A stretch of DNA of 64,000 bases from a virus: positions 28,374 through 92,373 of IMG/VR virus record IMGVR_UViG_3300026519_000008; one strand, given 5' to 3'. Under the pieces are notes generated by a model. It was not told the DNA's origin. It worked only from the letters and a program-made list of their open reading frames with translations, and ran no database searches. Of this stretch, positions 875 to 63,659 are shown in pieces. A program made the translations under genes and the position numbers. Position 1 is the first letter of the stretch; each line of letters begins with the position of its first letter.

Positions 875-2488
875 CTAGACACACTCAGGATTGCCGTTCA
901 AATCAGCCGCTATAGCCCAATTCTCTTCAGGGGGAGGCTCATCCTCACAAGGCTCCGTAGACTGCAAAACCTCGTGGGTCAGCCCATCAGGCAAAGCGTC
1001 CACAAACCCAGAAGACGTGATATATACCAAAGTCTTTTTGGCCCGTGTCACAGCTACATAACCCAAATTCCTCTCCTGTTCAATTTGCCACGGCAACCGT
1101 GCATACCTAGACGGGACAAGGTTAGCATCCAACCAAAATACCCTATCCCACTCCAACCCCTTGGCCTTGTGAATGCTAGACAAAGTCAGCCTTGAAGACT
1201 TGTCCGCAAACAAATGCTCGATGGTATTGATCAACCCTGGCACAGACCGGGACCGCTCAGGCAGGTGGTCAATGATCACCATAATCGTGCCAACCTTGTC
1301 CTCTACCGCAGCAGCCCGATCTTCCTTCCCCTGCTCCTCAAATTTTCTAATCTCTCTGATCATATAAGCATCAAGCTTATTGACCAGATCATCCACACTT
1401 TCAGCATTCTGCTTTTTGATCAAAGAAATCAAACCTTGCCCAATCTCCCGACCAAGAACCGTCACTCCCACCCCGGCCCGAATGAACTTATAGGCCAAAG
1501 ACACCAAGGGCTTGTTGTTCCTGCACAGAATCACGTCATCCTTGGTAAACGCCTCCGCCGTATAACTGCTCCAGTGCTCTACAACACCCTCTGGGGCTTC
1601 AGGGGCCGCCTCAATATGAGAGACCCAATTCTGAGCTTCCGCCACCACCGCCTTAGGACACCTAAAACTGACCGACAGGGGCATCTCAAGGCAATTGAAT
1701 TCCATCACCAAATTCTTGACCGATTCCGCATCAGCCCCCCTGAAACCATAAATCGCCTGGTGTGGATCTCCAACAGCTATCAGACGGCCTCCAGGCTTCA
1801 ACATCATCCTGAGCATTTGCCGCTGAATGGCCGAAAGATCCTGACACTCGTCCACCAACACTACATCGTTTTTGAAGAATGGTGCCCCGTAAACTACCGG
1901 CATGTACAGCTGGTCATTGAAATCAATTTCACCCATGAAGGCTGCATGGATAGAATCTACCAAGACCCTCCTGGCACCCTCTATGGCCTCAGCCTCTTGA
2001 TCATTCAAGTCCACCTGAAACCTGTCGATCAGCCACCCCCAACTTTCAGGAGTATCCTCCATGAGAACTGTCTTAGGATTCCTAGGAGCCCCGGCTGGGA
2101 CCAACCCGTGTGACTTTGCCAAGGCCACCAGCCGCAACACTCCGGCTGGCATGCCCACCCTGGAATCCCAATACTTCTTGCAGATGTTGAAGGTCTTTCC
2201 AGTATCCAGCCGTACCCTCCTACCCTGGAGCACCCTCATCCACGCCCCATGCCCAAGCGCGTTCATGGTCTTACAGACCACGTGCTCAGGCATACGCTGA
2301 GCCAGTTCTACCGCGATTTTCTTGTTGAATGCCGCTGCTGTGATTTTGAGGTGGGATGGCAGCTCCGCCACCGCCGCCACCAGAGTGGAAGTCTTACCAG
2401 AGCCCGCCACTGCCTGGAGGCAAATGCTTCCAGACCCTTCCCGCAGCTCCTTGATGAATGCTAACTGTTGAGGAGAATATCTCATCAT
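875..2488 (-). CDS. UvrD/Rep-like superfamily 1 DNA helicase
   Basis: AVAGSGKT Walker A, VDECQD, VGDPHQAIYGFRGA, SFRCP, SIHKAKGLEW, YVAVTRAK. Confidence 0.93.
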   Translation of the reverse strand: MMRYSPQQLAFIKELREGSGSICLQAVAGSGKTSTLVAAVAELPSHLKITAAAFNKKIAVELAQRMPEHVVCKTMNALGHGAWMRVLQGRRVRLDTGKTFNICKKYWDSRVGMPAGVLRLVALAKSHGLVPAGAPRNPKTVLMEDTPESWGWLIDRFQVDLNDQEAEAIEGARRVLVDSIHAAFMGEIDFNDQLYMPVVYGAPFFKNDVVLVDECQDLSAIQRQMLRMMLKPGGRLIAVGDPHQAIYGFRGADAESVKNLVMEFNCLEMPLSVSFRCPKAVVAEAQNWVSHIEAAPEAPEGVVEHWSSYTAEAFTKDDVILCRNNKPLVSLAYKFIRAGVGVTVLGREIGQGLISLIKKQNAESVDDLVNKLDAYMIREIRKFEEQGKEDRAAAVEDKVGTIMVIIDHLPERSRSVPGLINTIEHLFADKSSRLTLSSIHKAKGLEWDRVFWLDANLVPSRYARLPWQIEQERNLGYVAVTRAKKTLVYITSSGFVDALPDGLTHEVLQSTEPCEDEPPPEENWAIAADLNGNPECV

Positions 2489-2553
2489 CCGCCTCTCCTA
2501 ATAAAAGGTCCCTGGGGACCGTGTCCGCCAACCTCCAACCTCCAGTACCCCGT

Positions 2554-2583
2554 AGGGTACCACATGTCACTGCCGTTTGTCAA
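2554..2583 (-). promoter_or_regulatory. sigma70-type promoter TTGACA-N18-TACCCT
   Basis: Intergenic, upstream of the helicase, TG-extended -10. Confidence 0.65.
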
Positions 2584-2587
2584 ACCC

Positions 2588-2782
2588 TCAGAAAGACAGC
2601 GTTCTGTGCTGTCGGCACAACAGTACAAATGCCTTTAGCACGTCTTTATCATGCTGCGACAAACTCGCAAACGTCAGAGAGGCATTAAGTCCATACTGAA
2701 GCTCAGTCCTCAACTGTTCGATAACAGGTTGCGCCTCTTGGAGGGCCTTTGCAAACTCTCCTTCGGTTGGCTTCTGAGCCAT
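2588..2782 (-). CDS. hypothetical protein
   Basis: 64-aa ORF with AGGAG SD. Confidence 0.6.
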   Translation of the reverse strand: MAQKPTEGEFAKALQEAQPVIEQLRTELQYGLNASLTFASLSQHDKDVLKAFVLLCRQHRTLSF

Positions 2783-3180
2783 CTCTTCCTCCTAGCAGAC
2801 ATCTCCCGCCTCCACCGGTTGTACCACGGAAGCTTCTCAGGATGCCGCAGACACTTAATCCGTGTGTTCTTACTCCTGTCAGGCCAAGACGAGATATAGC
2901 CTTTCTTTTTCAAACATTTCCCGCGCTCAGCCTCTACCCGGATCGCTTCCACAAGAAGAACTGAAACTTTCTGAAGCTTTTCAATAGAACCCCCAGCAAT
3001 CACCCCCTGGCGCTTCAATATCTCAAAGGCGTACAAAAGTGCTGTGGGACGTATATGCTTGGCATCCGTACTCAACTCCCGGACTGCTCTTTTGTACGCA
3101 ACCCGCCCAGTTCTAAATATCGTGCCTGGAATTGTTCTCCTCCATCCCATCTCATAGACCCTCATTTCTGCACCCACCAC
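2710..3180 (-). CDS. hypothetical protein
   Basis: 156-aa ORF; its 3' end overlaps the next gene. Confidence 0.5.
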   Translation of the reverse strand: MVGAEMRVYEMGWRRTIPGTIFRTGRVAYKRAVRELSTDAKHIRPTALLYAFEILKRQGVIAGGSIEKLQKVSVLLVEAIRVEAERGKCLKKKGYISSWPDRSKNTRIKCLRHPEKLPWYNRWRREMSARRKRWLRSQPKESLQRPSKRRNLLSNS

Positions 3181-61876: not shown

Positions 61877-62352
61877 TTGCGCTTCTCAAATTCATCAGCG
61901 ATTACCTTATCACCAAACTTCCTAATAGTTCGCCTGTCGCGTGGGGAAAGACCAAACCATTCACGTACCTTCCCAGTCTTACCCATATGATGGATGTCAA
62001 GCAGTTTCATTGCCCGAGCCCCCGCCGGACGTATCCTAATTTTAGCGTGAGTTCTAGTCCTCTTTCTCCAATACCACCGCACGCTCTCCAGCATCTTCCC
62101 TGTATAGGCCAAGATTTTACCTGGGTACTTACCAGGATGCGTCTTCCTCCATTCAGCATACCCGGCAGACCAAGCAGCCAGAGGTCTATCATTTACATCC
62201 ATCTGCTGAGTAAGCACACGCTCCCATATCGTATGAATCGCATACCGAGCAATCTTCCTCGCAGGACGAGTAATATCAGCTTCGGACATTCTGCCCATCC
62301 TGTTCTTTGCCCGTGTGTACTCTTCATCTACCTTAAAGTTCATGTGGATCAT
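61873..62352 (-). CDS. neck/virion morphogenesis protein
   Basis: YAEWRK, L.YTG.ML, HH.G, REWFGLS. Confidence 0.6.
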   Translation of the reverse strand: MIHMNFKVDEEYTRAKNRMGRMSEADITRPARKIARYAIHTIWERVLTQQMDVNDRPLAAWSAGYAEWRKTHPGKYPGKILAYTGKMLESVRWYWRKRTRTHAKIRIRPAGARAMKLLDIHHMGKTGKVREWFGLSPRDRRTIRKFGDKVIADEFEKRK

Positions 62353-62726
62353 GTGAGTCTCCTCAGCTGCATAATCCACAGGACCTCTACCGGATCAGAG
62401 CGAATATCAACGATTTCCCACTCATTGCCCGACCCATCCACAATCTTTCCATCCACTGATGGGGTAATACCGCTGCTAGTCCTCTCCATCAATGCCTTCA
62501 TGTCCCCCTGCTCATACCCCTGCATAGACCACAATTCCTTCCAGGAGTAGCTAGTCATAAGCACCCGAACGGATGTATCAGATACTGTAGGTTCTGTGTA
62601 ATCTCCAGTGTCTGGGTCCACCCCGCCACCGGATTCTACTCGATACGTAACATCGGTCATCAGGCTGTCGATCTGCCTGATGGCACGCCTGCTGGCAGCT
62701 ACGATCTGATCACGTAACCCGGCCAA
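62349..62726 (-). CDS. head closure protein
   Basis: VTYR...DPDTG...GD.K....P...KI...WEIV....DP...W..QLRR. Confidence 0.6.
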   Translation of the reverse strand: MAGLRDQIVAASRRAIRQIDSLMTDVTYRVESGGGVDPDTGDYTEPTVSDTSVRVLMTSYSWKELWSMQGYEQGDMKALMERTSSGITPSVDGKIVDGSGNEWEIVDIRSDPVEVLWIMQLRRLT

Positions 62727-63342
62727 CGACTCTTCCCCTAATCTTTGCCAGGTACGGATGCAGAAGCGCCCTGACAATCATGATCGGGACCAAAACATCA
62801 TCCCCCAGCAGCTGGGTCATAGCCCGATTAACCGCAGACTCAGCTGGATCAAATGCGATGTCGATCTGACCAGCCAAATTTACGCTGGCAATGCCCCTAT
62901 CCGCCTCAAGAGATTCCGTCGTATCAGCGTCAAGGTCATACAAAGGATGCGCCACCTGAAAAAGCAACTCACACTGCGCGTCCTTTACCAGCTGAGGAAC
63001 ACCAGGAGCCGTTGTTCCCAACTGAGTAGCTTTTGCCGTGACATCAGCGTAGGTGTCGAACCTTCCAGCTACCGTATCGGAGTCACCCTGACCATACAGA
63101 GAGTCTCTACGAAGCAGCCTAGGAAAGGCCAACGCCTGCTCCAAACAAGCTCGCACGCCCCGAAAGGGTAATCTGTCAAGCAATGTTGCTGCCAGGCGGA
63201 TTCTAGGTTCTTTGAGTGCTTCAGTTAGATCGTGCCACCCGGCCGCCTGCAACGAACTACGTCCTGCCAAGTAGCTATCCGCCTCAGCCACCGTCACGTA
63301 GCTCGTAGCATCTGGTCCGCCGACCGTTACATCCAAGGCCAT
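62710..63342 (-). CDS. head-tail connector (DnaT-like domain family)
   Basis: A.SYVTVAEADSY, QALAFPR, VP..VK.AQCE. Confidence 0.75.
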   Translation of the reverse strand: MALDVTVGGPDATSYVTVAEADSYLAGRSSLQAAGWHDLTEALKEPRIRLAATLLDRLPFRGVRACLEQALAFPRLLRRDSLYGQGDSDTVAGRFDTYADVTAKATQLGTTAPGVPQLVKDAQCELLFQVAHPLYDLDADTTESLEADRGIASVNLAGQIDIAFDPAESAVNRAMTQLLGDDVLVPIMIVRALLHPYLAKIRGRVVGRVT

Positions 63343-63590
63343 TACTCAGTCTCCGACTTCTTTTTCTTCTTTTTCTTAGCCTTCTTCGGCTTAGGGGGAT
63401 CTACCAACCGCATCTCAAAAATCTTGGCCTGCTTCTCATCCTGAGTAGTTCGCTTCACCAGCTCGTTGTACTCCTTCCGGGTCAGCGTATACTCTTTCCC
63501 GGCCTCGAAAACAACTGTCCTACCGGCCAGATGCGTTTTGTACGTTCTGCCGTAGGCCAGCTTTGCGTAGGCATACTTGACTACACTCAT
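63342..63590 (-). CDS. hypothetical basic protein
   Basis: 82 aa with GGAGG SD. Confidence 0.6.
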   Translation of the reverse strand: MSVVKYAYAKLAYGRTYKTHLAGRTVVFEAGKEYTLTRKEYNELVKRTTQDEKQAKIFEMRLVDPPKPKKAKKKKKKKSETE

Positions 63591-63659
63591 AACGCCTCCT
63601 CAGATGAATGGGTCGGTGGCCTGAAATCAATTTCAGACCACCGACCTCAATTAATTCTT

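Follow-up and report, generated by a model that had tools for sequence, protein, structure and literature searches.

What is the function of a 14-bp palindrome that is dispersed over an entire phage genome, and which protein reads it? This question was raised by a DNA stretch of 64,000 nucleotides (the window) from the IMG/VR virus record IMGVR_UViG_3300026519_000008, which represents bases 28374-92373 of a single virus contig of 92,373 bp. A first-pass annotation had described the palindrome as an evenly spaced lattice and suggested that a dimeric protein binds it at roughly fixed intervals, naming the products of three genes (12454..13473, 7888..8820 and 4496..4744) or a host factor as candidates. 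We conclude that the palindromes very probably constitute a binding-site array for a phage-encoded dimer, and comparison of related sequences suggests that the gene at 12454..13473, called f12 in the following, probably codes for the reader.

Copies and spacing of the palindrome

The palindrome TGAAATCAATTTCA or its complement was present in 17 exact copies in the window (nine on the plus and eight on the minus strand), all at the positions reported before, compared to 0.04 matches in shuffled sequences. Further sites were a variant with a TA centre at 56274 (TGAAATTAATTTCA, a perfect palindrome) and a copy with one mismatch at 48054 (TGTAATCAATTTCA), which was absent from the earlier list. 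Scanning the full genome, as had been proposed, yielded 31 exact copies plus the single TA-centre variant in 92,373 bp. The sites have the near-palindromic form TGAAAT(CA/TG)ATTTCA of 14 bp, and 31 of the 32 contain a CA or TG centre and thus consist of one TGAAATC half and one TGAAATT half, a pairing which is not expected from independent halves (P=8e-9). According to the crude open reading frame (ORF) calls made for this analysis, all confident genes are located on the minus strand, and the GC skew is about -0.2 along the whole genome. Relative to transcription, the two orientations of the centre are used evenly, 15 and 16 times. The sites in coding regions are indeed read in the two frames claimed earlier (as EIDF/EINF and LK(L/S)IS). 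Because the site occurs in both orientations, in two reading frames and in unrelated genes, the constraint is on the DNA, as had been assumed; helicase codons shared between phages with different motifs (see below) agree with this.

The gaps between successive window sites were reproduced as 2096, 6347, 3189, 3007, 5206, 3393, 3337, 2896, 4965, 1887, 3752, 4669, 3044, 3314, 3254, 3794 and 3554 bp, the TA-centre variant filling an otherwise 7-kb gap. Testing the gap variance against random placement, which had been recommended as a check, gave a coefficient of variation (CV) of 0.31 for the window (P<2e-5). For the whole genome, the CV was 0.49, and neither any of 20,000 uniform placements nor any of 50,000 random draws of 32 gene starts was as even. 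Two regimes are apparent: 62 kb containing the structural, replication and packaging genes carry 16 sites with a mean gap of 3.55 kb and a CV of 0.24, and the 30 kb of small early genes carry another 16 sites with a mean gap of 1.95 kb and a CV of 0.58. The former statement that no gap is shorter than 1.8 kb therefore applies inside the window, but not to the whole genome, because gaps of 400 and 537 bp are present outside of it. These short gaps, together with the mean gap of about 1.9 kb in the 28 kb outside the window, render the terms "lattice" and "fixed intervals" too strong. The over-dispersion of the sites is real, as spacing more even than chance was observed in this genome as well as in its relatives, and the spacing is under selection.

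Arrays in related phages

A megablast search with the window revealed no close relative among cultured phages. The large terminase showed hundreds of homologues with 43-59% identity on metagenomic contigs of 80-105 kb, and an alignment-based terminase scan of viral contigs provided 80 relative loci. Scanning the relatives for palindromes, another check named beforehand, showed that they carry their own dispersed 5-N4-5 palindromes. We identified fourteen further phages with an own dispersed palindrome of 14-18 bp, mostly TGCAA-N4-TTGCA, and the dyads of the relatives and this phage range from 14 to 20 bp, with the motif calls in short loci based on few copies. Whole contigs of relatives confirmed that the arrays extend over entire genomes. 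The sequence TGCAA-N4-TTGCA occurs in 19 copies in genome G001, 16 in G002 and 29 in G003, and the reversed control pattern gave 0-1 matches in these three. The motifs of other genomes are GTGCACACGTGTGCAC (G006, 10 copies), TCCGCAAACGTTTGCGGA (G007, 21 copies), TACAATTAATTGTA (G009, 17 copies) and GGACCGTACGGTCC (G008, 26 copies), as well as TGAAGT-YR-ACTTCA in G011, for which five full-pattern matches were found and the count is not fixed. G005 carries an everted site, CTTTCA-N6-TGAAAG, in 6-7 copies, and G010 about 13 degenerate TGAAC-ACGW-GTTCA sites compared to 0.6 expected. The only genome of the set without palindromes was G012.

An array was also found in cultured phages with a terminase identity of only about 35%: the motif is TGCAATCAATTGCA in Stenotrophomonas phage DLP5 (31 copies), T(G/A)CAATCGATTG(C/T)A in Rhodobacter phage RcTiptonus (35-38 copies), TGCAACATATTGCA in Rhizobium phage RHph_TM16 (17 copies) and GCAATTAATTGC in Vibrio phage LV6 (16 copies). 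Even spacing was observed again in DLP5 (CV 0.49, P<5e-5), G007 (0.50, P=3e-4), G001 (0.51, P=0.002) and G003 (0.63, P=0.005), and more weakly in the other genomes. A comparable array is shared as a conserved feature by siphophages with genomes of 80-110 kb, a very large clade whose members infect unrelated hosts. The paper on phages DLP3 and DLP5 does not mention the palindromes (PMC7326821). In the searchable literature, the motif strings retrieved unrelated papers only, and we found nothing on phage ParB or parS-like site arrays, nothing relevant on RcTiptonus and no mention of the array for any of the four cultured phages.

The locations of the sites are partly syntenic among genomes with different motifs. 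Common locations are upstream of the prohead protease gene, at the head of the replication module, upstream of a conserved gene for a 203-aa protein, at the junction of the genes for a helicase and a protein resembling single-stranded DNA-binding protein or inside the helicase gene, and upstream of the gene for an AAA ATPase. For example, columns 423-428 of the helicase alignment are encoded by TGCAAGCGATTGCA in G002 and by TGCACACGTGTGCA in G006. The arm motifs TGCAA, TGAAA, TGCAC, TGAAC, CGCAA and TACAA differ by single positions. Such motif changes in place and single-position differences in the arms are predicted if the sites co-evolve with one reader.

We also considered that a host factor may read the sites, e.g., a global regulator of the LexA or CRP/FNR type, by which the phage would sense the state of the host or be silenced. 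The 5-N4-5 layout resembles LexA and FNR-type boxes, the variants TGAACACGTGTTCA and TGCACACGTGTGCA are similar to what we take to be LexA boxes of Gram-positive bacteria and Fibrobacter, and phages with many sites for the host regulator CtrA have reportedly been described. However, we regard a host reader as highly improbable, because TGCAA arms are shared by phages whose hosts belong to four unrelated genera (Stenotrophomonas, Vibrio, Rhizobium and Rhodobacter), while uncultured phages that are close relatives of each other differ at single arm positions. Moreover, the arms track the phage protein f12, and all 31 copies in this phage are identical over 14 bp, unlike the sites of a host regulon.

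A candidate reader of the palindromes

A dimeric protein is the only type of reader that fits the sites, and among the candidates named previously, the product of f12 (12454..13473, minus strand) is the best-supported binder in terms of co-occurrence, covariation, fold and an operator at its own promoter. The gene codes for a protein of 339 aa with a basic, lysine-rich N-terminal tail, a predicted helix-turn-helix (HTH) core that weakly resembles those of ParB, SopB and KorB (residues ~60-195), a helical C-terminal domain and a strongly acidic C-terminal tail. It was present in all 15 palindrome-bearing genomes and absent from the array-less G012, and it belongs to a family of more than 1,200 clusters at 50% identity (E<=1e-30).

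The start of the predicted recognition helix varies with the arms of the palindromes. It reads (Y/E)R(K/R)(A/S)xY wherever the arms are TGCAA, YRTGKH in this phage (TGAAA), SRIAYE with TGAAG, YRSAMY with TGAAC, PSKAES with TACAA, ASKGRG in RcTiptonus (TRCAA), SRKSEY with CGCAA and KRKAYY with TGCAC. The lysine or arginine at helix position 3 is lost in all three lineages with A instead of C at arm position 3, and the arginine at helix position 2 is lost in both lineages in which arm position 2 is A or mixed. The association of K/R at helix position 3 with C at arm position 3 amounts to 14:0 versus 0:3 (Fisher P=0.0015). In the f12 tree, the genomes with variant arms represent separate lineages, and the protein of this phage is sister to that of a TGCAA locus.

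The AlphaFold2 model of f12 consists of a disordered basic tail (residues 1-40), one long helix (41-79) and the HTH core, with predicted local distance difference test values (pLDDT) of >90 for core residues 41-191. A VIA-align structural search of 48,161 chains listed the ParB-parS DNA-binding domain (Z 6.0, 114 residues) and SopB-DNA (Z 5.5) at the top, followed by KorB, Spo0J, VirB and P1 ParB (all Z 4.3-6.0; 89-114 residues aligned), and the structures retrieved from the ESM Atlas belong to ParB-HTH families as well. The protein, which corresponds to gp82 of RcTiptonus and gp067 of DLP5, is annotated as hypothetical in cultured phages and does not belong to a Pfam family: a Pfam search with f12 gave no hit, the analysis of ten representatives of its family revealed inteins and sub-threshold hints only, and a sequence profile search against the PDB gave no match. 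A word-indexed homologue search returned almost nothing, probably owing to the low-complexity tails. The N-terminal ParB/Srx domain with the GxxRxxA box that binds cytidine triphosphate (CTP) in other ParB-like proteins is missing, as judged from the lack of a Pfam ParB_N hit and of such a domain in the AlphaFold2 model.

Some observations speak against f12 as the reader. Genome G005 with its everted site has the helix YTKVFS and is an exception to the covariation; if it is counted against it, the Fisher P rises to about 0.005. Locus L021 has TGCAA arms and the helix SRRAIY, which is like that of the CGCAA genome. Furthermore, the relatedness among the genomes inflates simple tests of covariation and co-occurrence. 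The fold match is modest, with Z values of 5-6 lying under the level the tool regards as secure for helical proteins, Foldseek found no match of f12 in the PDB, and the residues that presumably contact the bases are assigned from a predicted helix-turn-helix (H96-104, H108-124).

Because the f12 gene is located in a module with genes for RecA, a resolvase, a Cas4-like exonuclease and RuvC in every genome, a function of the sites in recombination-dependent replication stays a live alternative, although a rather improbable one. In this case, the palindromes would mark places of DNA cutting, nicking or modification or starts of replication or recombination, comparable to the nicks of T5-like phages, and f12 would serve as a targeting subunit. 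If a PolA-type replicase started at multiple points, even spacing would be suitable, and the phage encodes a glycosyltransferase and a protein with a ParB-like "nuclease" domain in the vicinity. However, the sites are symmetric while known phage nick sites are strand-specific, and those located at a fixed distance from -35 boxes (see below) indicate a connection with transcription.

The second candidate of the earlier annotation, a protein with a ParB_N domain of the Srx/CTPase type (7888..8820, minus strand), would be expected to load onto the sites as a CTP-dependent clamp and to spread from there like ParB, KorB or Noc, and the even spacing would then ensure full coverage; a limited sliding range of the clamp would naturally lead to a spacing rule. 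The protein gave a PHROG hit to ParB-like proteins (E=6e-35), its AlphaFold2 model matched the structures of ParB-CTP, Noc and KorB (Foldseek E ~1e-6, ~200 columns), and it contains the DGEHR motif typical of the ParB/Srx fold. In addition, its gene adjoins the terminase genes, and a ParB-like protein is likewise known from the Cluster O phages, which have 17-bp repeats of their own (PMC4351075). Yet the gene is missing from six genomes with dispersed palindromes (G005, G006, G009, G010, G011 and Vibrio phage LV6), and the conserved helical and C-terminal stretches of the protein are identical in the TGAAA phage, the TGCAA loci and the CGCAA locus and do not track the motif. The Pfam ParB_N score is also below the curated cut-off. 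We therefore consider it unlikely that this protein is the main reader; in those phages that contain it, it might assist f12 as an accessory partner.

Another possible dimeric regulator is encoded between the genes for the SF2 helicase and RecA (19914..20642, minus strand), namely a MerR-type HTH protein from a family that typically binds dyads centred on a 4-bp spacer. Its orthologues show MerR_1 hits, most members of the clade carry the gene at the same syntenic position, including DLP5, where it is annotated as a transcriptional regulator, and the 6/7-N4-6/7 dyad layout is typical of MerR operators. However, the protein is absent from G011, RHph_TM16 and RcTiptonus, which all have palindromes. 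Moreover, its recognition-helix region is near-identical in G001 and G006, which differ in their motifs (TGCAA and TGCAC), but not the same in G001 and G002, whose motif is identical. Thus, it is very unlikely to be the binder. The HTH protein encoded at 4496..4744, which had also been proposed, is not conserved in the clade.

Promoters and operator-like sites

The f12 gene is preceded by a sigma70-like promoter at 13511..13540 (minus strand, TTGACA-N18-TATGGT). The gene directly upstream codes for an intein-containing AAA+ ATPase (13561..16479, minus strand) and has its own sigma70-like promoter at 16524..16553 (minus strand, TTGACA-N18-TATACT); the two genes are adjacent in most close relatives. 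The palindrome at 13550..13563 contributes the TGA stop codon of the AAA ATPase gene and precedes the -35 box of the f12 promoter by 9 bp; that at 16557..16570 contributes the TGA stop codon of a RuvC-like gene and precedes the -35 box of the AAA ATPase promoter by 3 bp. Palindromes 3-10 bp upstream of the -35 box of the AAA/f12 promoter occur not only in this phage (twice), but also in RcTiptonus, DLP5, LV6, G006 and G005, with individual distances of 9 bp in RcTiptonus and G006 and 6 bp in G005, and they are found 19-29 bp upstream in G003 and G002. In total, eight of 14 genomes have a palindrome at the operon head (P ~4e-7). The specific candidate f12 and the conserved operator at its own promoter are new here.

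Genome G003 contains six strong promoters with a palindrome exactly 7-8 bp upstream of the -35 box. This phage contains three promoter-linked palindromes. The third of them (31389..31402) is located 16 nt downstream of the -10 box of a promoter at 31419-31448, and the conserved 174/203-aa gene starts 12 nt after it, so that it has an operator-like position over the transcription start. The first-pass annotation had contrasted the sites with ordinary operators, which cluster at promoters. The contrast is not clean, because a subset of the sites is found at promoters, at a recurrent distance of 3-10 bp upstream of the -35 box.

Overall, we recognized thirteen strong sigma70-like promoters (TTGACAA-N17/18-TAnnnT) on the coding strand, namely those at 13511-13540, 16524-16553 and 31419-31448 in the window and ten others, and one on the opposite strand. 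Their distribution is restricted to the early, replication and packaging regions, and none is present in the structural module. The AAA+ ATPase (13561-16479) is Ycf46/FtsH-like, its intein contains a LAGLIDADG endonuclease, and related AAA ATPases occur in Cluster O mycobacteriophages and Rhizobium phages. We rejected the assumption that the palindrome itself is a phage-specific promoter, as it has no direction, leaves no room for a -10 box and a transcription start before the Shine-Dalgarno sequence, and is dense among early as well as late genes.

Placement of the sites relative to genes

Although non-coding DNA makes up only about 8% of the genome, gene boundaries harbour half to three quarters of the sites. 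Most sites occupy tiny intergenic gaps, 10-35 nt upstream of a Shine-Dalgarno sequence and ATG in the coding orientation, and seven sites supply the TGA stop of the upstream gene. Since several gaps consist almost wholly of the palindrome and a ribosome-binding site, the closeness to start codons appears as a by-product of packing and does not imply a translational role. Truly intragenic are 7-8 of the 18 window sites, so the previous estimate of about half was somewhat high. The clear cases concern the genes for the tape measure protein (twice), tail proteins of 1257 and 765 aa and the SF2 and UvrD-like helicases, one or two more are in small or uncertain ORFs, and the remaining window sites are in short intergenic gaps or overlap with a TGA stop codon.

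The intragenic sites are located at 1918..1931 in the UvrD-like helicase gene (875-2488, minus strand), at 21763..21776 in the SF2 helicase gene (20645-22006), where the site is read as EIDF, at 46662..46675 in the gene for the 1257-aa tail protein, at 49706..49719 in the 765-aa structural gene, and at 53020..53033 in the gene for the 2569-aa tape measure protein, which also contains the TA-centre variant (56274..56287). The SF2 helicase gene carries a palindrome in five of seven genomes. The site at 4014..4027 is within a small 82-aa ORF of uncertain gene status (3856-4104), that at 28493..28506 in the 5' part of ORF 27758-28777, whose true start is uncertain, and that at 38241..38254 in the start region of ORF 37651-38277. 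Located at a gene boundary is the site at 25156..25169 (between ORFs 25173-25622 and 24310-25203). The site at 36354..36367 precedes the start of the gene for a fusion of uracil-DNA glycosylase and PolA by 16 nt and thus marks the head of the replication module, a conserved palindrome location in six of seven genomes.

Intergenic sites were found at 10361..10374, after a terminator-like hairpin and 13 nt upstream of the start of a glycosyltransferase gene, at 41993..42006, 17 nt upstream of ORF 41733-41975, at 60068..60081, directly after a GC hairpin (GGGGAGGGG/CCCCTCCCC) and 22 nt upstream of ORF 59542-60045, and at 63622..63635, inside a 9-bp GC-rich dyad extension (GGTCGGTGG...CCACCGACC) and 31 nt upstream of ORF 63342-63590. 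With their hairpin or extension, the last two occupy 60043-60081 and 63609-63648, respectively. Classical terminators precede the site at 10361 and two sites outside the window.

These positions also bear on the idea that the palindrome works as an RNA element, either as a short hairpin in 5'-leaders which affects processing, stability or translation, or as a terminator. Many sites are indeed followed by a Shine-Dalgarno sequence and start codon at a distance of 10-35 nt, five come after terminator-like hairpins, and the site at 63622 belongs to a longer GC-rich hairpin. However, the genome is transcribed from one strand, and the loops UCAA and UUGA are used equally. The stem of 5-6 A/U pairs is weak and not followed by a T-run, no G-U pairs or compensatory variants occur among the 31 copies, 7-10 sites are within long ORFs, and the proximity to start codons follows from the tiny intergenic gaps. 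We consider an RNA element scarcely credible.

Two further candidate functions were dismissed: a Chi-like protection site, for which the palindrome is too long and too phage-specific, and a target of restriction or modification, for which the observed enrichment is opposite to the prediction.

Comparison with known systems

The KorB/OB system of the IncP plasmid RK2 is similar to the array described here in that one palindromic operator is repeated over the whole replicon, with a proximal subset located 4-10 bp upstream of promoters and the rest distal (PMC11790492). We found this layout of proximal and distal operators in this phage, RcTiptonus, G006, G005 and G003. Like f12, for which this is suggested by a weak fold match, KorB has a ParB-family HTH domain, and its own operon is among its targets. 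The two differ in that KorB contains a CTPase N-domain and acts as a sliding clamp with KorA, whereas f12 lacks such a domain and no KorA-like partner is known. RK2 carries about 12 KorB sites in 60 kb, and we know of no report that these are evenly spaced or that any is forced into long ORFs, compared to 32 sites in 92 kb with CV values of 0.24-0.49 in this case, where the replicon is a tailed phage.

The best fold matches of f12 are the DNA-binding domains of the ParB-parS/Noc/VirB family, but f12 has neither a CTPase domain nor a ParA partner. Noc, for instance, uses many sites which are spread over the chromosome. The half-site TGAAAT is identical to the Box A half-site of VirB and P1 ParB (ATTTCAG-t-ATGAAAT), but the half-sites face the other way here (TGAAAT-CA-ATTTCA), and only the relative G005 shows the parS-like orientation (PMC6410309).

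A descriptive class without known mechanism, i.e., more than 15 invariant palindromes inside and between the genes of a siphophage genome, is represented by the Cluster O mycobacteriophages Corndog and Catdawg, and the phage described here belongs to it as well. The 34 copies of a 17-bp dyad in Cluster O were reported in 2015, their function being unknown to the authors, who predicted a dimeric binder (PMC4351075). We confirmed the repeats in Catdawg. As in this phage, more than 30 invariant palindromes occur across the genome without orientation bias, and Cluster O phages encode a related AAA ATPase (36% identity) and a ParB-like protein. Their repeats are distributed over gaps, the vicinity of gene starts and the interior of genes, with about a third in each category. 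The motif differs (TGTTCGG-N3-CCGAACA, 7-N3-7), the copies crowd into the right arm whereas they are evenly spread here, and no protein was proposed there as the binder. Dozens of identical sites throughout the genome, mostly in short intergenic gaps, are also known as the stoperators of L5 and other Cluster A phages, which are bound by the repressor and serve genome-wide silencing (PMC4351075). However, stoperators are asymmetric and oriented with transcription, whereas the sites of this phage are symmetric dyads used in both orientations (CA/TG centres 15/16).

Other features of the phages

A second motif, GTCTTTCCCCACGCGA, occurs in 16 copies, always on the coding (minus) strand. Six are in the window (8842, 8894, 27613, 33710, 51712 and 61949) and ten outside of it (coding-strand coordinates 66799-79732). 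Several copies abut a Shine-Dalgarno sequence and ATG, and four cluster within 150 bp; the motif could be a phage-specific promoter or an RNA element. The relative G010 (IMGVR_UViG_3300033144_007170) contains about eleven tandem 15-bp iterons (ATCTTTCCGGTGCAA) at coding-strand positions 73314-73540, just downstream of the large terminase gene, which may be an origin or a packaging site. In the phage studied here, a uracil-DNA-glycosylase domain is fused to a family A DNA polymerase (33713-36337, minus strand), and the portal gene (31530-33686, minus strand) is located between the polymerase and replication genes, far from the capsid genes. The tape measure protein of 2569 aa (51487-59196, minus strand) implies an unusually long tail.

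Proposed function of the array

Taking the evidence together, we find it fairly likely that the palindromes are docking sites read by f12 which are used both next to promoters and genome-wide. We infer the binding of f12, its binding as a dimer and the purpose of the array from the data presented above. Dimers of f12 would dock at TGAAAT(CA/TG)ATTTCA. A few sites would act as promoter-proximal operators at host-type promoters, including those of the operon of f12 itself, and their presence at these promoters implies autoregulation. Most sites would be promoter-distal, located in short gaps or forced into long genes at a density of about one per 2-3.5 kb. Because most sites are promoter-distal and evenly spaced, in spite of the fixed peptides which they impose on essential genes, the array may serve an additional, density-dependent purpose on the level of the whole genome. 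For the chromosome as a whole, bound f12 might be a global silencer or regulator, or else it might organise the phage DNA; bridging, looping or the recruitment of partners via its acidic C-terminal tail are conceivable means. KorB-like control or organisation of the entire genome is our tentative suggestion for this purpose. A link to the plasmid-like prophage state of the relative DLP5 is conceivable, since both DLP5 and DLP3 have a temperate lifestyle and the former was obtained as a phagemid (PMC7326821).

These suggestions have to be weighed against several findings. Since f12 lacks the long-range CTPase domain, the analogy with KorB covers the layout of the sites, but not the mechanism. 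An integrase, ParA or an obvious repressor was not seen in this phage; a role connected with lysogeny is therefore an extrapolation from DLP5. Finally, only three of the 32 sites are near a recognizable promoter, and a purely regulatory role would not explain the intragenic sites and the even spacing.

A more speculative extension is that a very large family of phage proteins with a ParB-like HTH core, a basic N-terminal and an acidic C-terminal tail and without CTPase domain reads even palindrome arrays as a chromatin-like or insulating scaffold of tailed phages, of a kind not described before. Selection would then maintain about one palindrome per 3 kb, essential genes included. In such a scaffold, a physical range (loop size, length of transcription units or replicon size, for instance) would determine the spacing, and not the regulation of genes. 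Should the array indeed organise or silence the entire chromosome, these phages would possess a counterpart of KorB or Noc which functions without a CTP clamp. Repeats of the Cluster O type have long been unexplained, and the presence of an array throughout the clade together with a candidate reader makes an experiment feasible with RcTiptonus, DLP5 or LV6. The palindromes provide a quick genomic marker for the clade, and the pairs of motifs and helices represent a natural series on the evolution of DNA-binding specificity. If true, the proposed function would also explain why the same odd peptide motifs occur in unrelated genes of these phages.

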